IMG/VR virus record: IMGVR_UViG_3300005805_000059
Span: 26,047-90,046 of that record
Source: a virus
Taxonomy: Duplodnaviria; Caudoviricetes
Strand: one strand, 5' to 3'
Length of the DNA: 64,000 bases
Part shown: piece by piece, positions 1 through 64,000 of the stretch
How positions within the stretch are numbered: position 1 is the first letter of the stretch
Layout: every line of letters begins with the position of its first letter
Program-made: the position numbers and the translations under genes
The notes under the pieces: generated by a model
Databases searched by the model: none
Told to the model about the DNA's origin: nothing
Seen by the model: only the letters and a program-made list of their open reading frames with translations

Positions 1-589
1 CCTTGTCAAATCTTACGGCTTTTGTCCAATTATTTAATGCCCAATGTCCAATACCACAGGCATCTGCAATGTCATTATCAGTAACTACTTTATCATAGTA
101 AACTTCTACAAGTTTAATTGTTCTTTCTTTTCTTACATTACGCTCGTATGTTTTATACCACGAATTTGATTTGCCAGGATGTTGCTTTCTAATTTCTAGT
201 TGCTCATCCTTGCTTAACTTCTTGTTACCAAGATAATTCTGCCAAGTGATTGGAGATACCCTGCCAATTTCTACAATACCTGCAATACCTGCAGCACCTA
301 TGATAGCCCCTTGAACCAATGCAAGATCGGCAGCAGTCTTAGGACTATTCATAAATACTGTGTGTTCTATAATTAAAGAGTGTGTATCTGAAAAGGTGGG
401 GTGTCTAAAGAATGCCGATATCTTCTTAGATGCATCAATACACTTCTCATATATAGTGTCGCCAAGAAAGACTATCTTTCCAGTAAACACAATCTTGTCT
501 GAATCAAACAAAGCAAATGCAAGATTATTAGTACTAGCATCAACAGATATAAACTTTGTAGGTTTATTCGTCAGTGGTATTTTTGCCAT
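1..589 (-). CDS. ruvC: RuvC-like Holliday junction resolvase (runs off window edge; not in ORF track)
   Basis: Manual translation MAKIPLTNKPTKFISVDASTNNLAFA...IIEHTVF...NDIADACGIGHW shows the RuvC acidic motifs (D in strand 1, E, DxxD). Confidence 0.75.
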   Translation of the reverse strand, partial: MAKIPLTNKPTKFISVDASTNNLAFALFDSDKIVFTGKIVFLGDTIYEKCIDASKKISAFFRHPTFSDTHSLIIEHTVFMNSPKTAADLALVQGAIIGAAGIAGIVEIGRVSPITWQNYLGNKKLSKDEQLEIRKQHPGKSNSWYKTYERNVRKERTIKLVEVYYDKVVTDNDIADACGIGHWALNNWTKAVRFDK

Positions 590-863
590 TCATAAATCCT
601 TTCAGTTGTTTCATTTGTTTATCTAATTCTTTTTTATTGATGTTACAAGCATTACACAGAACATCATCATTATAGATAGATAGTTTCTTACCACAGCCAC
701 CTGCACAAATTTTTGGTTTAGAAAGTCTTTTCCTTCTTTGATTAGCGACATATCTTTCTGCAATCTTTATCTTAGTTGCTTCTGTCCTACACTCAGGACT
801 GCAATATACCTGATATGTTACTTTAGGTTGAAATGTATTGTCACACCACTCACAAGGCTTCAC
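564..863 (-). CDS. Zinc-finger hypothetical protein
   Basis: CEWC..YCSPEC and CAGGC..CNAC cysteine pairs; overlaps neighbours. Confidence 0.6.
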   Translation of the reverse strand: MKPCEWCDNTFQPKVTYQVYCSPECRTEATKIKIAERYVANQRRKRLSKPKICAGGCGKKLSIYNDDVLCNACNINKKELDKQMKQLKGFMNGKNTTDE

Positions 864-1635
864 TTAAATCCTCCAGGGACTTGATAGTAATCTGCCCTGC
901 TCCTGCTAATTCACAAGTTTTTGAAATAGGACAAGTCTTACAGATCTTTGAGTTAGACCTATAATTTTTCTTAGGTAACTTTTTATCTACCCAAGCCTTT
1001 CGTACTTCTCTCATCCACTCTAGTGAATTATCTACCCATTTAACATACTCTGCCTTTACTTCTACTGGATACAAAAATAACTCGTGAGTATTTTTGTTTT
1101 CATAAATAAGGACACCCTTTTCCCTATTTAATAACTTCATGTATAGAAGTAGTTGCTTTAGATGATCTTTCTTTGGTGTATTAGTCTTCTTACGATACTC
1201 AAATGCTTCCATGTTAGAAGTTTTAATTTCACCAACGATTACTTCACCTTCCCATTTAATGAGAACATCTCCGAAACCAAAGATTGGTGGATCATCACAA
1301 ACAATTTTGAATTCTTTATCAATAAGAATTCCAGAACCTTCAATAGCCTTTTCAATACGAGTATGTGATAGTGTTCCACTGCTCATATTTGCTGCACCAT
1401 ATGGATCTGTATTATCTTCAAAGTCTGCACCTTCAAATGCAAGATACCAATATCTTGGACATTCTCCGTGACTATAAACAATTGTTGATGGTGCAAATGT
1501 TTTCTTTGTCGTAAACTTTGTTCCTCTATCAGCAAGATAACCTGATTCAATCTTTTCGATAAGAGCCTTTGTATCTAAAGAACTCTTTTTCTCAGCAGGT
1601 TTCATCATAACTTGCTGTAATAAACTTTTTGCCAT
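850..1635 (-). CDS. Cas4-like PD-(D/E)XK exonuclease with 4-Cys Fe-S staple
   Basis: N-terminal ECPRY, central GFGD..GEIKT, QLLLY motif, C-terminal CKTCPISKTC. Confidence 0.8.
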   Translation of the reverse strand: MAKSLLQQVMMKPAEKKSSLDTKALIEKIESGYLADRGTKFTTKKTFAPSTIVYSHGECPRYWYLAFEGADFEDNTDPYGAANMSSGTLSHTRIEKAIEGSGILIDKEFKIVCDDPPIFGFGDVLIKWEGEVIVGEIKTSNMEAFEYRKKTNTPKKDHLKQLLLYMKLLNREKGVLIYENKNTHELFLYPVEVKAEYVKWVDNSLEWMREVRKAWVDKKLPKKNYRSNSKICKTCPISKTCELAGAGQITIKSLEDLSEAL

Positions 1636-1667
1636 TTTAGACCTTTCGTATCATACTATTATACCAT

Positions 1668-1970
1668 CTATCGCATGATATATTTGAGTGCAGCAACTAA
1701 ATTGTTGACTGCTTCTGCTGCAGTATAATAAATATTCTTCTTAGATCTATTTGATTTATCAACATTAGCATACCAAGTTGCCATAAAAGCCATCTTAGAA
1801 GCGATAGCCTGTAGCCTTACAATTTCAAGACTAGCAACATGAGGTGGAATATCTGGCTTAACTATAAGTTTAGCAATCATAGTCAATGCTGTTGTAAGTT
1901 CTTCATCTTCCATAAACTCAGCAATCTCAGCCAAACCATTTATTTGTTCAAGTGTTGTTTTGTCTTCCAT
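1668..1970 (-). CDS. Hypothetical helical protein
   Basis: 100-aa ORF, abutting neighbours in operon. Confidence 0.6.
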   Translation of the reverse strand: MEDKTTLEQINGLAEIAEFMEDEELTTALTMIAKLIVKPDIPPHVASLEIVRLQAIASKMAFMATWYANVDKSNRSKKNIYYTAAEAVNNLVAALKYIMR

Positions 1971-2260
1971 TATTCTTCCTCCATTAGTTGTTCAAGCAAT
2001 GCTAATTCTACAACTGCAAGTCGAACCTTTTTATTACCCTCTCCAATTACCACAATAATTGCTGGAGACTTATCCTTACCTGCTTTGATAGCATCAGTAG
2101 TAGCCTTAGCCCACACATCTTGATTAAGTGTAAATGACTTTGATACTTCTTTGAAGTCAACAACAAACAATTCCCAAGTCGCATCACCTTTTACAGTACC
2201 ACGACCAGAATTTTTATGTTGTCTAGCCCCTATTCTCTTGCTCTCGCTCTTCTCGCTCAT
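1970..2260 (-). CDS. Small PD-(D/E)XK nuclease, Hjc-type resolvase-like
   Basis: NSGRG..KGD..VDFKE..SFTL pattern; 96 aa. Confidence 0.55.
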   Translation of the reverse strand: MSEKSESKRIGARQHKNSGRGTVKGDATWELFVVDFKEVSKSFTLNQDVWAKATTDAIKAGKDKSPAIIVVIGEGNKKVRLAVVELALLEQLMEEE

Positions 2261-2429
2261 AATCTCTCTTTGTCTTTTTTATAGGTGTCAACTGCACCTC
2301 TGATATGTGTCCTTGTTTACATCTCCAAGATGAAAGACCAGACTCTTTCCATACACGCATTGACCCAACATTTTCTTTACAAGTCTTGCAAGGAAAAATT
2401 CCTGGGTATACAGAATATGATTTAGACAC
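2223..2429 (-). CDS. Zinc-ribbon hypothetical protein
   Basis: CKTC...CKQGH. Confidence 0.5.
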   Translation of the reverse strand: MSKSYSVYPGIFPCKTCKENVGSMRVWKESGLSSWRCKQGHISEVQLTPIKKTKRDYEREEREQENRG

Positions 2430-3429
2430 TTAGTACCTTTGCCTTAATCTGATCTTGTAGGTCAAGGTCTTCTCTTACACGAGCAACAAATGCATCTCTA
2501 CCCTGAACCTTTGTGCCATCATCTAATTGATACCAAGCACCTGTTCTAGTAACGATACCAAGCATTTCTGCTGTATCTACAAGATCACCAATCTCATCTA
2601 CACCTACATCATTACCTCTAAAGTAAAAGTCATACTCTCCACTTTGGAATGCTGGAGATGTCTTTGAGAACTGTAATTCCCAACGAACCTTACGACCAAT
2701 CTTTTCTTCAATTAGTTTATCACCAACTGCAATCTTGCCTTTTAGTGCTTGGTTGTCAGACTCAGAGGAGAACAACTTAATAATACTTGACGAGTAGAAC
2801 TTGGTTGCTTGTCCACCTGATGGTTGCTGACTTGTATACATAGCACTGATATTATTTCGTGACTGACTAATTAAAATAATCAATGTTGGCTTTACTTTAT
2901 TATTTGCATAATTAAGCATCTTCCAAGCATTACTAAAGTCACGAGACTCTGCACCAATCTGTTTAGTGTTCTCTAATTCCTTTAGTTCGTCTGTACCCTT
3001 CTCAAAATAAATAGCAGGTAATAGTGATGTGATCGAATCAACCACAATAATATCTACACCAGCATTAAGAAGATTAGTGCCAACATCAACCATATCGTTA
3101 ATAGTGCGAGCCTCAGAATAAATTAACTTATCTGTGTCTACACCAAGACGAGTAGCCCAATCAGCAGAGAAAGACATCTCAGCATCAATCCAAGCACATA
3201 CTTTGCCTTCTTTCTGAGCCAATCCAATAGTCTGGAGACACAAGGATGATTTAGCACTAGACTTACTACCCCAAATCAATACTTGCCTTCCATATGGCAA
3301 TCCACCATTCATAGCCCTATTAAGACCATAACTAGGTGTTGGCTGATATTCCACATGAATACCAGTTCCTGTTCCAAGACGCTTACGAATCTTTGGGTCT
3401 AACTGTGCTAATACATCATCTACTGACAT
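2422..3429 (-). CDS. recA: RecA/UvsX-like recombinase
   Basis: GGLPYGRQVLIWGSKSSAKS (Walker A), CAWIDAE, IIVVDS (Walker B), GGQATKFYSS, GAWY; start moved to MSVDD at 3429. Confidence 0.92.
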   Translation of the reverse strand: MSVDDVLAQLDPKIRKRLGTGTGIHVEYQPTPSYGLNRAMNGGLPYGRQVLIWGSKSSAKSSLCLQTIGLAQKEGKVCAWIDAEMSFSADWATRLGVDTDKLIYSEARTINDMVDVGTNLLNAGVDIIVVDSITSLLPAIYFEKGTDELKELENTKQIGAESRDFSNAWKMLNYANNKVKPTLIILISQSRNNISAMYTSQQPSGGQATKFYSSSIIKLFSSESDNQALKGKIAVGDKLIEEKIGRKVRWELQFSKTSPAFQSGEYDFYFRGNDVGVDEIGDLVDTAEMLGIVTRTGAWYQLDDGTKVQGRDAFVARVREDLDLQDQIKAKVLSV

Positions 3430-3431
3430 TG

Positions 3432-3635
3432 TCAATTTTCTATCCAACCTTTCACTATTGCTGCATCCTCTTCGTGTGTACAATCACTGTAACAACAAGG
3501 AGTTGTATTATCGTTTGGCGTATGCCATTTCAAAATATCTTGTGCAATCTTTGCTCTAACTTTTTGTACAACCTTGTGAGTGCCATTGCAATCACCATCT
3601 GGATCAGTTGTAAATCCACAACCACACTTAGCCAT
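3432..3635 (-). CDS. CDGSH-like iron-sulfur microprotein
   Basis: CGCGFTTDPDGDCNGTH resembles the CDGSH 3Cys-1His motif. Confidence 0.5.
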   Translation of the reverse strand: MAKCGCGFTTDPDGDCNGTHKVVQKVRAKIAQDILKWHTPNDNTTPCCYSDCTHEEDAAIVKGWIEN

Positions 3636-3952
3636 TAGAATCGTACTCCGTGTTTCTCTGGTCGCTCTGTATTCTTTTGCATTTTATTAATGACAGCCCA
3701 ATCTAAAGATATTGAAGTATATTTGTTTTCTACTAATCCTGCATACAAATCAAGTACACGGATAATAATATCTGCAAACTCAAAGGCTATCTCTTCTTCG
3801 CCCTTTTCTTTTCTAATCGCTTCCATTGCTTCTACAACTTCTGACACAATCATCATCAACTGTTTAGCAATAAAAATATCATCAACTTCTTCGTGCCAGA
3901 AACCTTTTTCTGTAGCAATGGCATGAACTTGTTCTGCTAACTCATCAAACAT
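3635..3952 (-). CDS. mazG: MazG-like nucleotide pyrophosphohydrolase
   Basis: SEVVEAME and EIAFEFADIIIRVLD acidic helices. Confidence 0.8.
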   Translation of the reverse strand: MFDELAEQVHAIATEKGFWHEEVDDIFIAKQLMMIVSEVVEAMEAIRKEKGEEEIAFEFADIIIRVLDLYAGLVENKYTSISLDWAVINKMQKNTERPEKHGVRF

Positions 3953-6900
3953 TTTCTATATCCTCCAATATCGGTGTTCCATCTTTAGTCTTACCAAAGA
4001 CAAACTTATAAACATTTCCCTCTTTAATATGCATATACGCTTTAGCAAAAGCAGTTGGGAATACTGTGATAGAGTGTAATTCTCTACCAGCATCTGCTAC
4101 TGTAAGCGAAGCCATTTTCTTACCTGTCTTAGTGACTCGTGGCTTAAACGAGACTACATAATGCTCACCTTCTTTGTATGGCAACATCTTGTAGTTCAGG
4201 AATTTAACTAATGCTTCTTTAGATTCTTTGACTTCATCAACAGGAATATAAGAAACAATTCTATTATCTGATGCAAGAATAATATATGTTCTACCAGACT
4301 CAATCTGTGTATTCTCTTCATCAAAGATACCGATAGATCCTGTCTTGTCTAGAACTTCCACTCTTGACCAACCCTTTGCCCTCTTAATCGATTTTACCAT
4401 ACCCATTACGATAAATGCACCTTTCTCTTCATACTCATCAATATCATTGATGTATGCGTGATAGTGTTGTGGTACGGTCATATTGAACTCAGGCAAATTA
4501 AGATATTCATATAGATTTTCTTTTACCTTATCCTGATTGAGAGGATTGTCGGGGAACGATAATGCACCAATTGCATTCATTGCTTGCAATGCACGACTAT
4601 TCACTCCATTACCCTTTGTAAAAGTAAACTCTTCTACTTCTTTGTAAGACTTAAATGGTCGTCCAGCAATGTATCGCTCTGCAATCTTGTCTGAAATATA
4701 TTTAATTGCAGAGAGACCGAATCGAATACCCTTGCCCTCAATCTTAAAATCAATATCTGATTCATTGATATGTGGCAACTTGATTGCAATGCCCATACGC
4801 TTTGCTTCAATAAGATACTCTGTGCGAGCATCCTTATCCTTTTCATTCTTTAGGATTGAATACATAAACTCAAGTGGGTAGTAATACTTCAACCAAGCAG
4901 TCCAATAGGATAGAGTTGAGTATGCTACTGCGTGAGACTTATTGAATGAATACCCTGCGTGTGCTTCAAAGTCGTGCCATAGATCATTAGCCTGACCTGG
5001 CAAGATGTGTTCTGATGCACCCTTTACGAATCTATCTCTAAACTCATTAAATTCTTTTGCATCTTTCTTCTTACCAATAATCTTACGAACCTTGTCTGCT
5101 TCTGCCATTGACATACCACCAAGTTTTACGCAAGCAAGCATAACTTGTTCTTGGTATAAAACTAGACCATAGGTTTCTTCTGTGAACTCTTTAATAATTG
5201 GATGTAAGTAACTAATCTTTGATCGTCCGTGTTTACGGTCAAGATAAAGTTTACCAATGGTATTCATAGCACCAGGACGAACGAGTGCATTAGAAGCAGC
5301 AAGTTCATCAAGATTCTTTACACCCATCTTTACAAGAAGGTTTGTGTATGGTGTGGCTTCACATTGGAACACACCTTTTGTGTATCCGTCTGACAACATC
5401 TGATAAACATTTGCATCGTCCATCTTGATGTCAAGCAAGTTAATCTTTTTACCTTCTCGCTTTTCAATAATATCTACGGTGTCTTTGATGACTGATAAGG
5501 TTTTGAGTCCAAGAGCATCAATTTTGATGAGTCCGATTTGTGCAGCCTCTTCCATATCAACCGCCACAACAGGTATACGCTCATCGCTACCAGTAGAAGA
5601 CCGTGTTTCCAACGGTGCGTATTTAAAAATAGGATCTTTAGAAGTAACAACGCCAGCAGCGTGTATGCCAGTACCTCTAATACGACCACGAAGTTGTTCT
5701 CCATATTTCTCCACTTCAGGGTATTTATCTCTAAACCATTGAGCATTCTTTGATGTGCAATACTCATCCCAAGTATCTACACTCTTCAAGACTTTATTTA
5801 CATCTGGAAGTGGAATATTCAATGCACGACTAACATCTCGCACTACACCCTTATCCTTAAACTGTAGGAAGGTAGCAATAGATGCAACATTCTTATATTC
5901 TTTTACAAGATAATCTTTTACTTCATCTCTGCGTGAGTCCTGAATATCTGAATCAATATCAGGGAAGTCATTACGCTCTGGATTAATAAATCGGAAGAAT
6001 AGCAATCCGTGTTCAATAGGATCAATATCTGTAATACCAAGTGCATAGCAAAGCAAAGACCCTGCAGACGAACCACGACCTGGACCGACCATAATGTCAT
6101 TTTCCTTAGCCCAGTTCAACATATTACGAACAACCAAGAAGTAAGCCCCGAAGTTTTTATCTTTAATGATTTCTAGTTCTTCTTTGAGCCTGTCCTCATA
6201 GACAGTATCACCAGTGTGCTTACTTGTAAGTTTGCGTTGTTCTAAACCATCAATTGCTAACTTGTGCAATTGTGCTTGTGGATCATCATATTGAACAGGT
6301 AGTAAGTCAAGGTTTTCCTTGATATCATACTGCTCAATCTTATCTGCAATCTCAAGCGTAGACTCAAACATATCTTGTCTGTCGAATCCTTGCTTTGCCA
6401 TAGCCTCTTTCATTTGCTCGTATGACAATAGATGAATATCAAATCGATTAAACGACATCATTCTATCTTTGCCATACAAGTAGTCTAGGCGTTCCATCAT
6501 ATCTTCATACTTCTTAGACTTCTCAAATGTCACACCCTTTTCTAGTTTAGCGTGAGTGTTGAGAATAAGCATCATCTCTTGGATTACTTTTTGATCTACA
6601 TCAGAATGATGACAATCAGGAGTAACTACAGGTTTAACACCAAATGCGTCTGCTAGTTCAAGAATACCCCTGTTTACTTCTGGTGGATTATGTGGCATAA
6701 CTTCCAAATAATAATCATCACCAAATACATCCTTGAACCAACTAATCTTTTCTTTGGCTACTGCTAGTTCGCCTAGTTCTACAGCCTTTGCTACCCAACC
6801 ACTTAAACAAGCAGAAGTAACAATAAGACCTTCGCTATACTTTTCTAATACCTCAAAATCAAATCGTGGCTTAGAAAAGAAACCTTCTGTCCAAGCAATC

Positions 6901-7232
6901 TCATTAATCTTGTTGAGATTTTCTAGACCTGCCTGGTTCTTGGCTAGAAGAATTATATGATGATAGTTTTGATCTAATGGGTCAGTGCGGTCTGCTTTCT
7001 GCCTATTATCAAACCTATTCGTGGTCATATAACCTTCTACACCAAGAATCGGCTTTATGCCAGCCTGTGTAGCAATTCTATGCATTTCTCTATGACCAGA
7101 TAAAGAACCGTGGTCAGTGATAGCCAATGCTGGCATACCAAGAGATAACGCTCTATCCACATATTCTTGTGGAGTAGCAACTCCATCCATAAGTGAATAA
7201 TGTGTGTGTACATGCAAGCCGACATAGTTCAT
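3945..7232 (-). CDS. dnaE: DNA polymerase III alpha subunit (family C)
   Basis: PHP HVHTHYS/TDHG/DCH, GPGRGSSAGS, PDIDSD, GYSFNKSHAVAYS, C-terminal OB-like region. Confidence 0.97.
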   Translation of the reverse strand: MNYVGLHVHTHYSLMDGVATPQEYVDRALSLGMPALAITDHGSLSGHREMHRIATQAGIKPILGVEGYMTTNRFDNRQKADRTDPLDQNYHHIILLAKNQAGLENLNKINEIAWTEGFFSKPRFDFEVLEKYSEGLIVTSACLSGWVAKAVELGELAVAKEKISWFKDVFGDDYYLEVMPHNPPEVNRGILELADAFGVKPVVTPDCHHSDVDQKVIQEMMLILNTHAKLEKGVTFEKSKKYEDMMERLDYLYGKDRMMSFNRFDIHLLSYEQMKEAMAKQGFDRQDMFESTLEIADKIEQYDIKENLDLLPVQYDDPQAQLHKLAIDGLEQRKLTSKHTGDTVYEDRLKEELEIIKDKNFGAYFLVVRNMLNWAKENDIMVGPGRGSSAGSLLCYALGITDIDPIEHGLLFFRFINPERNDFPDIDSDIQDSRRDEVKDYLVKEYKNVASIATFLQFKDKGVVRDVSRALNIPLPDVNKVLKSVDTWDEYCTSKNAQWFRDKYPEVEKYGEQLRGRIRGTGIHAAGVVTSKDPIFKYAPLETRSSTGSDERIPVVAVDMEEAAQIGLIKIDALGLKTLSVIKDTVDIIEKREGKKINLLDIKMDDANVYQMLSDGYTKGVFQCEATPYTNLLVKMGVKNLDELAASNALVRPGAMNTIGKLYLDRKHGRSKISYLHPIIKEFTEETYGLVLYQEQVMLACVKLGGMSMAEADKVRKIIGKKKDAKEFNEFRDRFVKGASEHILPGQANDLWHDFEAHAGYSFNKSHAVAYSTLSYWTAWLKYYYPLEFMYSILKNEKDKDARTEYLIEAKRMGIAIKLPHINESDIDFKIEGKGIRFGLSAIKYISDKIAERYIAGRPFKSYKEVEEFTFTKGNGVNSRALQAMNAIGALSFPDNPLNQDKVKENLYEYLNLPEFNMTVPQHYHAYINDIDEYEEKGAFIVMGMVKSIKRAKGWSRVEVLDKTGSIGIFDEENTQIESGRTYIILASDNRIVSYIPVDEVKESKEALVKFLNYKMLPYKEGEHYVVSFKPRVTKTGKKMASLTVADAGRELHSITVFPTAFAKAYMHIKEGNVYKFVFGKTKDGTPILEDIENV

Positions 7233-41635: not shown

Positions 41636-43666
41636 CTACCTTTGTGGCATTATACAAGCATCTGTTGTACAGTATGCTTCGCCTTCTGCCTCAAGGTTTT
41701 CTACACCCTCGTAAATTGCTGAGAAATCAATCTTAGCAATCTTACCGATATAAGCGTCATATTCTTCTTGAGTAATTTGTGTATATGGTTGTTGTGGATA
41801 TACTGTATTACCCATTGGAAGGAATGATACAGCCTTCAACTCTCCCTCGTACAAATGTAGAGCGGGAGCAATATGCTGAGTCTCAGTTTCCTTATCAAAT
41901 GACAGGGTAACAGATACACCATTGTCAGACCAATACTTTTGAGCAGTTGCTGCTAGACCAATCTTTTCAAATAGAGATACATCCTTTTCAGAACGCTTGT
42001 TCTCTGATTCTACTGGGAAGTAAACTACCTGAGTATTTGATGATACCAAGTCTGGCTCAATCTTATACCCTGCTGCTTTGAAAAGGTGCAACATTGGATC
42101 TGCATCACCAAAACGAATTGCACGAAGGAAGTACTTTCCACCTACTGACCAATGCACTCCTGGAGATGCTCCAGAAAGCAATGAAACGGAGCCTGACGGC
42201 TTTACAGTAGTTACCCTAATAGATTCACGCACACAAAGCCATTCTGAGTATGCGTGGTCATATTTACGGATTGTCTTGTATCCTTCATCCATCCAGTCAC
42301 GAACAACTGGCAAACCGTGATTATCAGCAAATGATGCAATACCTGTAAGTGATGTACCAATACGGCGATTGCGTTGCATAATACCATTTGTCTGTTGCCA
42401 ATGTGTTGGAAGAAGAGTTACAGTCTTGCCATACAAATAAGCAAACTTAAGTGTACGCAAGAAGTCTTCTTTTGACTCGTGACGATTAAGATGCACTTCG
42501 ACAAGAGTACATAGTTCGTATGACTCTAGTGGTTGTTCAGCACAAGGATTGAATCCCATTACCCGATAATCTTTGCCATCTGCAGGGTCTGCAAGACGAC
42601 CATAGTTACGAGCAACATCTAGCCAAATAAATCCTGGCTCTCCATTGTTTACAATAAGATCAACATACTCTTCGTAGTTTGTTCCTACCTTAGCAGCAAT
42701 AGAGTTATTGCTCATCCAAGCCCATCCTGGTTTTTCTGGGTCGTATGAGTTACGCTCTGGGAATACATCTGGATTCTTGAGATTAGCAAACACTTCATCA
42801 TCTGCCTGACCTAACGCAAGGGTAGCAGAACGGCGAACATTACCTGCAACCACACAAGTACCAATAAGGTTTACAAGGTCTACAATGGCTCGTGAGTCAA
42901 GTGTTTCACCTGTTCGACTACCTACAGCAGTACGAATTCGTTCGTGTAGTGTAATCAGTGGTTCTGGACCTGAAGCAACACCACCAAACCCTTTAATTGG
43001 AGCACCAAATGGACGAATGACTGAATAGTCAAATAGTTGCTTTGCTTGATTTGGTCTAAGATATGAATTGATTAAAAGTCGTACAGACTCTACCCAACCT
43101 TCACGAGTATCTGGAATCTGATAAGTAATTTCTTCTTCTGTATTTGCATAAATAGGAAGTTCCTTCTCGTGACCCAATGTATCAAAGCCTACACCAATAC
43201 CGAGCATTAGTGCATCCATTACCCAAGCAAATAGTTGTCCTGGATCATTACGATCAATATCTCTTGTGGATACCATTGCACAATTCTGGAGGGAAGCAGA
43301 GTTCCTTCGTTCCATTGTCATAGGTGTACCAAATGCCCATAGACCACGACCTGGTGGTGTCCACTTCAAATTAAACATTCGATCAAATGCTTCTTGTGCA
43401 GACTTCTGAGCCTTATTATCATTCCACGGAAGTCTATTTTCTTTAGCGTGATTCTTTTGGACTGAATACATACCTTCGATTACTCTTCGACATACTTCGT
43501 GCCATCTTTCCTTTGTACCGTCCTCCTTTACACGAGAGTAGGTACGGATAAAGGTAATTTCTCCAAGAGAGTTAGCACCTGCATCCTTAAAGCCAAAAGG
43601 TGGCTCAACCTGTGTATATTTATTTACGAATTCATCTGAGAGACGAAACGAAAATACATCTGACAT
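41636..43666 (-). CDS. nrdJ: Class II (adenosylcobalamin-dependent) ribonucleotide reductase
   Basis: RTYSR, PPGRGLW, NCA, FNPCAEQPLESYELCTL, TTVKPSGSVS, C-terminal YCTTDAC; start 43666 after AAAGGA. Confidence 0.92.
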   Translation of the reverse strand: MSDVFSFRLSDEFVNKYTQVEPPFGFKDAGANSLGEITFIRTYSRVKEDGTKERWHEVCRRVIEGMYSVQKNHAKENRLPWNDNKAQKSAQEAFDRMFNLKWTPPGRGLWAFGTPMTMERRNSASLQNCAMVSTRDIDRNDPGQLFAWVMDALMLGIGVGFDTLGHEKELPIYANTEEEITYQIPDTREGWVESVRLLINSYLRPNQAKQLFDYSVIRPFGAPIKGFGGVASGPEPLITLHERIRTAVGSRTGETLDSRAIVDLVNLIGTCVVAGNVRRSATLALGQADDEVFANLKNPDVFPERNSYDPEKPGWAWMSNNSIAAKVGTNYEEYVDLIVNNGEPGFIWLDVARNYGRLADPADGKDYRVMGFNPCAEQPLESYELCTLVEVHLNRHESKEDFLRTLKFAYLYGKTVTLLPTHWQQTNGIMQRNRRIGTSLTGIASFADNHGLPVVRDWMDEGYKTIRKYDHAYSEWLCVRESIRVTTVKPSGSVSLLSGASPGVHWSVGGKYFLRAIRFGDADPMLHLFKAAGYKIEPDLVSSNTQVVYFPVESENKRSEKDVSLFEKIGLAATAQKYWSDNGVSVTLSFDKETETQHIAPALHLYEGELKAVSFLPMGNTVYPQQPYTQITQEEYDAYIGKIAKIDFSAIYEGVENLEAEGEAYCTTDACIMPQR

Positions 43667-43801
43667 ATGTATCAATCCTTTTCTATAAAAATTAGTAAGT
43701 GCTTCAGAATTTCTGAAGTACTCTAAGTATATCATACATTTTTTGTGCTTGCAACTCTAAAGTTTTACTTGAGTGCTTGACAATTTGCAAAGTACTTGCA
43801 A

Positions 43802-60184: not shown

Positions 60185-60207
60185 ATTGTAGCATTACCCT
60201 CTGACAT
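60185..60207 (-). promoter_or_regulatory. Leftward TGTCAG-N10-TACAAT promoter
   Basis: Same box and spacing as the three rightward cassettes. Confidence 0.6.
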
Positions 60208-60246: not shown

Positions 60247-60350
60247 TGTGACCTAATTCACAAAAATAGTGGTGTCCTATTTGTCATAAAAAAACGGACA
60301 TATCCGACAATATGGGACATTTGAATGTCAGACCTATGCCTTATTATTGG
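60247..60350 (+). repeat. Early promoter cassette 1 (CRP-type site, GGACA boxes, TGTCAG-N10-TATTAT)
   Basis: TGTGA-CCTAAT-TCACA at 60247-62; ungapped alignment with cassette 2. Confidence 0.8.
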
Positions 60351-60896: not shown

Positions 60897-61078
60897 TGAA
60901 GAAACTAAACTACTATGAGCGTGACGCTATGCTTGAGCAATCTATTGAATTTATCAAGCAAAAGTACGGCTTCAATCGTGATAGGGCTTCTGTCGTACTT
61001 ATGGGAATGATGTTCTCTTTGATAAATGATAGTGACTTAGAACTAATACTAACTGTTGCACAAAAGGAGCGTGACTAA
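60896..61078 (+). CDS. Early hypothetical protein
   Basis: TAATG coupling; GAGG RBS. Confidence 0.6.
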   Translation: MKKLNYYERDAMLEQSIEFIKQKYGFNRDRASVVLMGMMFSLINDSDLELILTVAQKERD

Positions 61079-61290
61079 TGAACGAACTAAACCCCTATAC
61101 CCTTGAATACATAATCGCTGACCTACAAAAGAAATTGGTGAGTTACAGAAAAGACTTTGCCTTTGGATTGAGTTGGTCAGAACCTCAACGGCGTGAGCGA
61201 ATTGGGCAAATAAAATTGCTTGAATTGCTAATTGCAAACTATGAAAATAGATTGAGTGAATTGCTGATTGACCTTGACAATCAAAAATAA
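61078..61290 (+). CDS. Early hypothetical coiled-coil protein
   Basis: AAGGAG RBS; coupled. Confidence 0.6.
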   Translation: MNELNPYTLEYIIADLQKKLVSYRKDFAFGLSWSEPQRRERIGQIKLLELLIANYENRLSELLIDLDNQK

Positions 61291-61447
61291 ATTTGGAAGG
61301 TATTCTGTTTATTGTGGTAAAGTGGTTATCACAATAAGCAATTTACATTCTGCAATTGAATACGCAAAAGAATTTGACGCAACAAAAGTTGTAGATGAAA
61401 AAAATAAAATTGTGTGGCAAAATTCCAGGATCAGCAAAATAGGGTAA
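61274..61447 (+). CDS. Possible early protein, 57 aa (TTG start)
   Basis: Open frame up to the next non-coding cassette; weak RBS. Confidence 0.35.
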   Translation: MTIKNKFGRYSVYCGKVVITISNLHSAIEYAKEFDATKVVDEKNKIVWQNSRISKIG

Positions 61448-61457
61448 ATCAGACAGG

Positions 61458-61594
61458 GTGCATGCAAGTCGGGCAAATCGGACATCCAGGTGTGACTAAG
61501 ACCACAAAAATACTTATGCCCGAATTGTCATAAAAAAAGGTACATATCCGACTTTTTGGTACATTTCAATGTCAGACCTATCGCTTATTATTGC
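61458..61594 (+). repeat. Early promoter cassette 2
   Basis: GTGCATGCA, TGTGA-CTAAGA-CCACA (61491-506), TGTCAG (61570), TATTAT (61586). Confidence 0.8.
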
Positions 61595-61612
61595 CTTGTA
61601 AGAAAAAATAAA

Positions 61613-61714
61613 TAGTGTGTAGGTGAGCCTAGCAAATAAATCTGAGGTGAGCCTGATTAGAAATAATCAGCAAATAAACTCAGAGTGAGCCTAGCAAATA
61701 AACTACACACACTA
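61613..61714 (+). ncRNA. Candidate branched cis-regulatory leader RNA with three GUGAGC..CAAAUAAA units
   Basis: Three nested stems and three motif copies between promoter and RBS. Confidence 0.7.
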
Positions 61715-61732
61715 ACTAAGAAAGGTGTCACT

Positions 61733-61897
61733 ATGACAATTACAGAAATTGAAAATTCACTAGAAATTTTAGAAACCTATGAAACTACTTGGTGTGAAAT
61801 TCATAAGAATTTTATTAGCCTCGCTGAGTGTGTTGAGTGCGAGATGTCTACTTGTGCAGACTGCCTTCGTGCTTATGGTTGCGATAACTGTTACTAA
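61733..61897 (+). CDS. Early Cys-rich microprotein
   Basis: RBS AAGAAAGGTG; WCEIH..CVEC..CADC..CDNC. Confidence 0.65.
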   Translation: MTITEIENSLEILETYETTWCEIHKNFISLAECVECEMSTCADCLRAYGCDNCY

Positions 61898-61911
61898 AGA
61901 AAGGTAAAACT

Positions 61912-62073
61912 ATGAAAACTAATAATCCGTTTATGGACATTCTAAATTGTAAAGAATGCAACGGCTCAGGCTATTTTGGCTTTAGCGTTGCAGGTGTTTG
62001 GGAATTTACATTCTGCAAATGCAATCCACATAAATTAGACTTGTCAGGTTTCAAAAGGAGTGTGACTAAATGA
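61912..62073 (+). CDS. Early zinc-finger microprotein, 53 aa
   Basis: RBS AAGAAAGG; CKECNGSG..FCKC. Confidence 0.65.
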   Translation: MKTNNPFMDILNCKECNGSGYFGFSVAGVWEFTFCKCNPHKLDLSGFKRSVTK

Positions 62074-62243
62074 TGACAAGAAAAGACTATGTAACTACTG
62101 CCGAAATTCTAAACGGCAATCGCTATTTCATAACTGAAATGGTATTCATTGAAATGGTAAATGAATTTGCAGACTATTTTGCAAGTGATAATCCTAGATT
62201 CAATCGTGAAAAATTTATTTCTGCTTGCAATGGAGGTAAGTAA
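62070..62243 (+). CDS. MTRKDY/DNPRF family microprotein, copy 1
   Basis: RBS AAGGAG; paralog at 63624. Confidence 0.7.
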   Translation: MMTRKDYVTTAEILNGNRYFITEMVFIEMVNEFADYFASDNPRFNREKFISACNGGK

Positions 62244-62329
62244 TGAAACTACAATTGAAATGTGTTGAGTGTTCTCAGTGGATAGACGCTGATGAATTCG
62301 CTTGGGGACACGATTGCGAAGTGGCGTAA
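62243..62329 (+). CDS. 28-aa zinc-finger micropeptide
   Basis: GGAGG RBS; CVEC..HDC. Confidence 0.55.
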   Translation: MKLQLKCVECSQWIDADEFAWGHDCEVA

Positions 62330-62385
62330 AGCCACCTAGCAACACCCCGACACGCCCGAGGTCGGCATGCACTCAAGATCAGGCT

Positions 62386-63447: not shown

Positions 63448-63624
63448 ATGTACAAAGTAAGACTAGAAACCTTCAATGGTGATGTGAGAGTAATTGAACT
63501 ACCTTCAAAGGGTGCTGTTGCTCAATTCATAAATTCCTACCCTGAAAAATTGCCAACAGGCATTAGCGTAAAAATTGCTTGTGACGCTTTGGGTGTTTCA
63601 GGTGTGTTGCGAGGTGTTGCGTAA
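63448..63624 (+). CDS. Early microprotein, 58 aa
   Basis: RBS AAGAAAGG. Confidence 0.6.
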   Translation: MYKVRLETFNGDVRVIELPSKGAVAQFINSYPEKLPTGISVKIACDALGVSGVLRGVA

Positions 63625-63791
63625 TGATGACACGCAAAGACTATGTGCGAACAGCACAAATCATAAACTCTGTTCACTTCTTTGTCAATGACAATGTGTC
63701 TCTGCACTTGATAAATAGTTTCGCTGACTATTTCCAAGCAGATAATCCTCGCTTTGATAGACAAAAATTTATTCAGGCTTGCACTAAGTAG
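63624..63791 (+). CDS. MTRKDY/DNPRF family microprotein, copy 2
   Basis: TAATG coupling; paralog of 62070..62243. Confidence 0.7.
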   Translation: MMTRKDYVRTAQIINSVHFFVNDNVSLHLINSFADYFQADNPRFDRQKFIQACTK

Positions 63792-63800
63792 GAGGTGACT

Positions 63801-64000
63801 ATGTTAGATAATTTCTATTTCCAAATTTGGTTCTCTAAAGAATACGGATTTACTTTTGACATCTACCCATTGCTACAATTTCAAATTGACTTTGGTGTGA
63901 TTGCAATTGTGTTTGGTCTTGTTGTTGCGTTGCGAATTCGTAAAGCAATTCAAAATCGTAAACGCAAATTCATAAACAAAACTGTTGTGAGTGATTTCTA
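63801..64000 (+). CDS. Membrane microprotein (ends at window edge)
   Basis: RBS AGGAGGTG; TM segment FGVIAIVFGLVVAL then basic tail. Confidence 0.6.
   Translation, partial: MLDNFYFQIWFSKEYGFTFDIYPLLQFQIDFGVIAIVFGLVVALRIRKAIQNRKRKFINKTVVSDF

Follow-up and report, generated by a model that had tools for sequence, protein, structure and literature searches.

Does the sequence of about 100 nucleotides that separates a predicted promoter from the first ribosome binding site (RBS) of a small-gene operon in a freshwater phage act as a structured RNA, and if so, of what kind? The phage is known from an IMG/VR virus record of 90,046 bp. The window, by which we mean the whole stretch of DNA analyzed (64,000 nt), is the final 64 kb of this record; GC content is 37%. 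The 'direct terminal repeat' of the record is only 99 bp (genome positions 1-99 equal window positions 63902-64000), so the record is probably a circular assembly, with the repeat looking like an assembly overlap of a circular or permuted genome. This is a long-tailed phage with a tape-measure protein of 2,943 aa, and its DNA is present in lake and freshwater metagenomes from several studies.

Among its auxiliary and replication genes are those for an IMPDH/GMP-reductase family protein (genome 13102-14100 (L087); Pfam E 3e-86), a ribonucleotide reductase (window 41636-43735) and a DnaE-type polymerase closest to those of Streptomyces phages (window 3945-7232; 55% identity to the Streptomyces phage BillNye polymerase). 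Taking these three genes as hints, an actinobacterial host is plausible.

The region from 60.2 to 63.3 kb consists of paralogous cassettes, each with a conserved region of ~117 nt that ends in TGTCAG-N10-TANNNT and is followed by an RBS. In cassettes 1 and 3 the distance from promoter to RBS is 20–35 nt. The ~100-nt element is present in cassette 2 only (one of three cassettes), and there is no second copy in the rest of the 90-kb genome. Small-gene cassettes on the plus strand run past the end of the window into genome positions 1-5600. Cassette 1 ends in a hairpin with a terminator-like score (61306-61340, 15 pairs), and cassette 2 in a hairpin pair without a U run (~62322-62367; GUGGC-GUAAA-GCCAC and CCGAC...GUCGG).

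Secondary structure of the element

A first-pass annotation of 61613-61714 described a branched leader RNA built from three copies of a GUGAGC-containing module, two of them identical 18-nt units, placed between the promoter and the first RBS. Its letters and coordinates are all exact on re-reading of the sequence, and the placement holds, with TGTCAG-N10-TATTAT at 61571-92 and the first ATG at 61733. The topology and the choice of module did not survive. Two identical 18-mers (GUGAGCCUAGCAAAUAAA) are indeed present as unit 1 (61623-40) and unit 3 (61685-702). Unit 2 (61647-78) keeps GUGAGC and CAAAUAAA, with CUAG replaced by CUGAUUA-GAAA-UAAUCAG. However, the minimum-energy fold of the plus strand (-27.8 kcal/mol, z = -3.3; RNAfold) is a single rod without a junction, in which the palindromic CUAG 61629-32 of unit 1 pairs with CUAG 61691-94 of unit 3. 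Thus the 18-nt units are not the functional modules. The object that repeats is an internal loop, formed by GUGAGC from one unit and CAAAUAAA from another.

The rod consists, in order, of P1 (8 bp), a loop, P2 (4 bp), a flipped loop, P3a (6 bp), a loop, P3b (7 bp) and a GAAA cap. The window copy therefore has 25 bp of stacked helix interrupted by three identical internal loops, the middle one flipped. The features of the leader are as follows.

61571..61592, plus strand: predicted promoter, consisting of a TGTCAG box, a 10-nt spacer and TATTAT (-10 at 61587-92); TGTCNG-N10-TANNNT layout shared with the paralogous cassettes and relatives
61615..61622, plus strand: P1 5' strand, GUGUGUAG; pairs with 61703-61710, and P1 columns covary among relatives
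61623..61628, plus strand: module 1 short strand, GUGAGC; opposite CAAAUAAA at 61695-61702
61629..61632, plus strand: P2 5' strand, CUAG; pairs with CUAG 61691-61694, with compensatory variants among relatives
61633..61640, plus strand: module 2 (flipped) long strand, CAAAUAAA; opposite GUGAGC 61685-61690
61641..61646, plus strand: P3a 5' strand, UCUGAG; pairs with CUCAGA 61679-61684
61647..61652, plus strand: module 3 short strand, GUGAGC; opposite CAAAUAAA at 61671-61678
61653..61670, plus strand: apical hairpin P3b, CUGAUUA, GAAA loop, UAAUCAG; relatives have GNRA-capped or other hairpins here
61671..61678, plus strand: module 3 long strand, CAAAUAAA (from sequence and fold)
61679..61684, plus strand: P3a 3' strand, CUCAGA (from sequence and fold)
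61685..61690, plus strand: module 2 short strand, GUGAGC (from sequence and fold)
61691..61694, plus strand: P2 3' strand, CUAG (from fold and covariation)
61695..61702, plus strand: module 1 long strand, CAAAUAAA (from sequence and fold)
61703..61710, plus strand: P1 3' strand, CUACACAC (from sequence and fold)
61720..61735, plus strand: Shine-Dalgarno sequence GAAAGGU and ATG (61733) of the first gene; the GAAAGG-N-ATG layout recurs at other genes

The window contains four occurrences of the pattern GTGAGC-N(0-30)-CAAATAAA, where 0.03 would be expected; none of 100 shuffles reached this count. The fourth occurrence (61193-61214) is on the same strand, 430 nt upstream of the element and inside an ORF (61078-61290). 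Its spacer is GAATTGGG, with neither a hairpin nor flanking complementarity, and it could be due to chance or be the remnant of a module. Among DNA contigs from lake populations, the variant 61642 C>U retains a U.G pair, and one relative is of the plain two-loop form, its P3 being CUUA-GAAA-UAAG.

A family of rod-shaped RNAs in freshwater phages

The exact 18-mer was found in 79 IMG/VR viral contigs, where the units are nearly always paired. The usual order is P1, N-UGAGC-CUAG-CAAAUAA-N, a hairpin, a second such unit and P1'. A covariance model (R1), built from 35 viral copies with the window excluded, detects 98 copies in the 18-mer loci. It also finds 61603-61723 with 70 bits (E 2.7e-16); the alignment spans the whole model (1-86) and includes 38 nt inserted in P3. 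These results place 61615-61710, with its three modules, in a large family of RNA structures that are rod-shaped and occur in uncultured freshwater phages. For a second set we picked 80 loci solely via a neighbouring protein gene, and 72 of them contain the motif (96 copies). The two sets together comprise 135 distinct sequences from 146 IMG/VR loci. Below, A3 denotes the set ascertained by the 18-mer and A5 the set ascertained by the neighbouring protein gene.

The commonest form, seen in 105 of the 135 sequences, has two loops across a 4-bp helix. Between one and four modules are stacked per rod, in either orientation. Some rods carry a single module alone in a hairpin (L027:7185, L013:2785 and L157), others have modules nested in the same orientation (L052:5745 and L007), and tandem rods occur at L070. 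The central hairpin of relatives may be CCGAAAGG, CCCGAAAGGG, CCGUAAUGG, CCGCAAGG, TGTGA-N6-TCACA, CCUCU-ACC-AGAGG or a whole extra module, and apical loops are GAAA, GUAA or GCAA. Typical members have only 11–13 bp of helix, and the element measures 45–100 nt.

Among cellular genomes (596 Gb) the 18-mer has five matches, all lone units without partners, which does not exceed the chance expectation. No GenBank phage matches the region, and the 96-nt element yields only chance 24-mers in Pseudoalteromonas phages. As judged by these sequence matches, the searches show a motif that is restricted to phages.

One copy (L038:13029-13112) follows the end of a gene and runs directly into GUUAUUUUUUUG, which contains a U7 run; no ORF starts for ~290 nt behind it. 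This copy may be a terminator or a stand-alone small RNA.

Conservation and covariation

The module consists of 5'-R-UGAGC-3' opposite 5'-C(A/G)AAUAA-R-3', an asymmetric internal loop closed on one side by G.A or A.G. The stems diverge, but the GAGC and C(A/G)AAUAA strands are almost invariant (61 and 73 distinct rows). Occasional rows have A or C in place of the U preceding GAGC, and on the long strand the second letter can be A or G. The closing position is either G.A or A.G and never G.G. For the second loop in A5 the closing counts are 27/1/0/37 (Fisher p 2e-17, a value that overstates the significance as the rows are related). In the window all three loops are G-UGAGC / CAAAUAA-A with a G...A closing, and G61623 and A61702 occupy the position that switches from G.A to A.G in the family. 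The helices around the loop are free to change in sequence. The two-loop core has a pseudo-twofold axis across the 4-bp (rarely 5-bp) helix. The loop could stack as G.A, U-A, G.A, A-U and G.A, followed by a bulge of two or three nucleotides.

All three helices covary, and P1 takes more than ten different sequences. Standard pairs fill 91.0% of paired cells in A3 (66.1% in shuffled alignments) and 92.2% in A5 (69.7% shuffled). The covariation score is 0.556 for A3 and 0.499 for A5, compared with 0.116 and 0.109 after shuffling; none of 500 shuffles reached the observed score in either set, and the best slid controls scored 0.095 and 0.098, respectively. Pairs altered on both sides number 9 of 11 in A3 and 10 of 11 in A5. 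P2 is mostly invariant. However, it has the variants CUAC/GUAG, CUAU/AUAG, AUAG/CUAU and the 5-bp CUUAG/CUAAG. Because these variants compensate in sequence and in length, they prove, on comparative sequence grounds, the CUAG/CUAG helix and the register of the rod. On folds constrained to keep the loops open we counted 30 G.U pairs and six A.C mismatches, an excess expected of an RNA read from the sense strand.

The suggestion in the first-pass annotation that RNA structure is under selection is thus well borne out. The collection of homologs that it proposed as a check now holds 135 distinct instances, covariation is present in both sets and strong in all helices, and the letters of the loops stay fixed.

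Predicted promoters and leader position

From the predicted promoter, transcription is predicted to start at ~61599, which would place P1 ~15 nt from the 5' end of the RNA. Promoter-like TGTCAG(ACC)-N10-TANNNT sequences number ~22 in the 90-kb genome and include those at window positions 60206 (minus strand), 60326, 61570 and 62499. Twelve TGTCAG-type copies lie on the plus strand between 86.4 kb and 4.6 kb of the genome, spanning the junction of the record. The TGTCAG box stands about where the MotA box of phage T4 would, not at -35, and the recurrence of TGTCAG-N10-TANNNT suggests a phage-specific promoter class. Only one of the ~22 promoters is accompanied by the motif, which is therefore not a regulon-wide tag.

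In relatives, a promoter-like site lies at most 100 nt upstream of the motif in 126 of 136 contexts. The -10 element ends a median of 34 nt ahead of the first loop, and a start codon on the same strand follows the last loop by a median of 65 nt. The commonest type has the rod flanked by two promoters, TTGACT-17-TAGTAT on one side and one of the TGTCAG type on the other, and the central hairpin of the rod is a CRP-like palindrome. As a second promoter separates motif and RBS in this form, direct occlusion of the RBS is unlikely there.

CRP/GlxR-like palindromes (TGTGA-N6-TCACA) occur within the motifs of relatives at L004, L009, L081 and many other loci, where they form the central hairpin or overlap P1 on its 3' strand. 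The window has TGTGA-N6-TCACA palindromes at 60247, 61491, 62419 and 63216, ~79 nt upstream of each TGTCAG box. These palindromes may have a dual role in DNA and RNA.

The downstream operon

The leader precedes an operon of four small ORFs.

61733..62329, plus strand: four-ORF operon behind the leader; small ORFs of 28–57 aa
61733-61897, plus strand: ORF of 54 aa, Cys-rich; only a below-threshold match to a B-box zinc finger
61912-62073, plus strand: ORF of 53 aa with CxxCxGxG
62070-62243, plus strand: ORF of 57 aa, 'family 0', MMTRKDYV...DNPRF
62243-62329, plus strand: ORF of 28 aa, Cys-rich

Family 0 (MMTRKDYV...DNPRF..F..AC, 55–60 aa) is present in more than 557 IMG/VR viral contigs; among the early genes of this group of phages it is the most conserved. 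A paralogue occurs in the window at 63624-63791. It is also the gene most constantly linked with the motif, usually ~470 nt downstream of it, and the motif heads an operon containing a family-0 gene in 72 of 80 loci. An AlphaFold2 model predicts a three-helix bundle (pLDDT 94) for which a structure search returned no fold match in the PDB. The family has no Pfam or PHROG assignment and no relative among GenBank phages, and the Atlas gives viral hypothetical proteins only. The protein lacks a known fold and, being acidic, is a poor candidate for an RNA binder. The other genes behind the motif in relatives are diverse small ORFs without known families.

Comparison with known RNAs

The first-pass annotation recognized no named family, and its proposed check agrees with this. 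A cmscan of the element against Rfam 15 produced no match at E values up to 10, and nothing was found at E up to 1 in seven loci with canonical copies. The unit sequence is not printed in any paper that we found in the searchable literature. Fremin, Bhatt and Kyrpides (2023; PMC10690425) reported 10,006 candidate structured RNAs from IMG/VR, the same data source as used here, including covarying candidate cis-regulatory RNAs upstream of phage genes that are in this respect like our motif. The text of that paper does not describe the motif, while its catalogue may list it. We consider the motif a new and apparently unnamed RNA family, of a familiar general kind (phage leader RNA) with an unusual building-block design.

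Kink-turns and other modular internal loops bound by L7Ae-type proteins are like the motif loop in being autonomous and asymmetric and in lying between a regular helix and one that opens with purine-purine pairs. Any host helix can accommodate either of them, in both orientations and more than once. The kink-turn signature is a three-nucleotide bulge followed by tandem sheared G.A and A.G pairs. However, the long strand C(A/G)AAUAA has a U, not a G, after AAA, and with no G after the bulge the tandem sheared pairs cannot form. The kink-turn C-stem register is also contradicted by the compensatory CUAC/GUAG and CUAU/AUAG variants in P2. We take the resemblance of the loop to the k-turn or the UAA/GAN motif to be one of outline only.

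Several phage leader RNAs share the position of the motif. The lambda nut site (boxA and boxB, bound by N) is likewise a short stretch of RNA that follows an early promoter and precedes the first genes. Both elements occur in more than one early operon, including divergent ones, and in both cases a small phage gene lies in the same operon. In lambda, boxB is a conserved 15-nt hairpin whose loop is recognized by the arginine-rich protein N. In contrast, the apical hairpin of the motif varies freely and is not a conserved recognition loop. The recognized part would instead be the internal loop, and no arginine-rich N-like protein was found. The put sites of HK022 (putL and putR), known from lambdoid coliphages, have a fixed architecture of two neighbouring stem-loops and render RNA polymerase terminator-resistant without a protein. 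They are cis-acting structured phage RNAs just past early promoters, as the motif would be, and like it are sense-strand-specific and carry conserved unpaired letters. However, the motif is a single rod with one to four copies of one internal loop, and we saw no sequence similarity.

An RNase III processing site of the T7 R0.3 type needs coaxial double helix of about two turns, or 20 bp and more. Like the motif, R0.3 and its sister sites are rod-like hairpins that contain internal loops, lie downstream of early promoters and ahead of the first gene, and occur in several copies per genome. The window copy has 25 bp of helix, and typical members have 11–13 bp. Hundreds of divergent phages share the fixed loop sequence of the motif, a constancy far greater than RNase III would need. 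In phage Mu, the small zinc-finger protein Com binds a structure in the mom leader RNA and controls translation from within the same operon. Cassette 2 encodes three small Cys-rich proteins, but they have no homology to Com.

Three further candidates were rejected. There is no terminator-like site at 61615-61710, where the tail is ACUAACUAAG, which speaks against an intrinsic terminator. A miniature inverted-repeat mobile element is contradicted by P1, which differs and covaries between copies, and by the flanks AAAUA and ACUAAC, which are not duplicated. ToxI-like type III antitoxin RNAs consist of direct repeats in tandem, with a single fixed period, that precede a gene for a ToxN-type nuclease. 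Here, the repeats are spaced by 24–38 nt and nested in inverted repeats, and the downstream ORFs encode 28–57 aa.

Possible functions of the motif

We tentatively favor a role as a cis-acting platform for a sequence-specific, probably dimeric RNA-binding factor that would set transcript stability or translation. Each loop would take up one fixed non-Watson-Crick fold, to which the factor would dock. The factor, encoded by phage or host, would probably bind as a dimer to the two-loop core, and its binding would decide the fate of the operon transcript soon after infection. The third loop in this phage would simply be one more site. Consistent with docking, twelve letters are fixed amid freely changing helices, modules vary in copy number and orientation, and the two-loop core is pseudo-twofold symmetric. 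However, no partner was found among the proteins searched. Neither the small proteins of the cassette nor the commonest neighbours had a significant match to a Pfam or PHROG family, and the larger phage proteins showed no RNA-binding domain. In addition, a promoter separates the motif from the RBS in the common type, and a fixed loop sequence is equally compatible with an RNA-only fold, a ligand or catalysis.

An unlikely, but still credible, explanation is processive antitermination. The nascent rod, alone as in put or with a small phage protein as in N/nut, would stay on RNA polymerase through the hairpin terminators between cassettes. The motif lies 15–30 nt past the predicted start whatever its distance to the RBS and is strictly sense-oriented, and hairpins do stand at the cassette ends (61306-61340 and ~62322-62367). 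The position of the motif ahead of family-0 operons in 72 of 80 loci can be likened to that of nutL, which precedes N in lambda. However, with a promoter for every short cassette there is no obvious need for read-through, which argues weakly against this mechanism. One to four modules of changing orientation look like independent sites rather than one fold that fits the polymerase, and the motif is found at a single one of the ~22 promoters of this genome.

It is rather improbable that the leader is a decoy. As an abundant early transcript it would titrate a host RNA-binding protein or nuclease, with a role in defense or housekeeping, that normally recognizes the same loop in host RNA, and the downstream genes would be incidental. 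Several identical sites per RNA and per genome, together with the diversity of the genes downstream, fit a sponge, as does L038:13029-13112, with its U7 and ~290 nt without a gene behind it, if read as a stand-alone RNA. The invariance of the loop across phages of 40–110 kb would suit a conserved host target. However, we know of no host RNA with this loop, and the 18-mer is absent from cellular genomes beyond chance (596 Gb, in a search that a split loop would escape). Nearly all copies are, moreover, in leaders and not in separate genes.

We similarly doubt a role that is independent of protein partners, in which the RNA is a 5' stabilizer, a processing site like that of the T7 early leader, for RNase III or a different RNase, a ligand aptamer or a small self-cleaving motif that leaves an mRNA with a 5'-OH. 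The rod is near the 5' end and has GNRA caps, the 25 bp of stacked helix in the window copy would suit such a role, and a set of twelve fixed letters in the loop is typical for a tertiary or catalytic core. Nevertheless, the helix of typical members is too short for RNase III, and a single-stranded 5' tail of 15–25 nt ahead of P1 makes a poor shield against 5' exonucleases. No known ribozyme or riboswitch model in Rfam 15 matches, and several cleaving modules in one rod make little sense.

A DNA-level element, either an operator or iteron array or a miniature mobile insertion with terminal inverted repeats, is very improbable: the insertion-like presence in one of three paralogous cassettes, the CRP-type DNA site TGTGA-N6-TCACA as central hairpin in many relatives and the shuffling of cassettes at this spot are outweighed by unit spacing of 24–38 nt without helical phasing, by segments between and around the units that are always self-complementary and covarying, which a duplex DNA site does not need, by the excess of G.U pairs over A.C mismatches, by P1 sequences that differ between copies and by the lack of a target-site duplication flanking 61615/61710.

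A more specific version of the docking platform is speculative and, in our estimation, improbable. The GAGC/CAAAUAA loop may be an autonomous recognition module, a phage counterpart of k-turn/L7Ae or boxB/N, with the family-0 protein as its partner in a circuit, either autoregulatory or modifying the polymerase, that only a very large clade of uncultured freshwater phages would possess. Otherwise, the loop might be a new small catalytic or ligand-binding core.

Significance

Phage leader RNAs such as nut, put and RNase III sites have been informative on transcription and RNA decay, and nearly all of them come from a few cultured coliphages. The motif described here is compact (45–100 nt) and covaries strongly; hundreds of uncultured lake phages carry it, and it is built from one stackable internal loop of twelve letters. 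Its minimal two-loop form (~55 nt) is of a size that suits direct structural and binding studies. If the loop acts without a protein, it would be a new tertiary or catalytic RNA motif. If it is a specific protein site, it would define a new small RNA-protein pair, with potential as a tool, and would open a way to study the control of early genes in phages with hosts that are difficult to culture.
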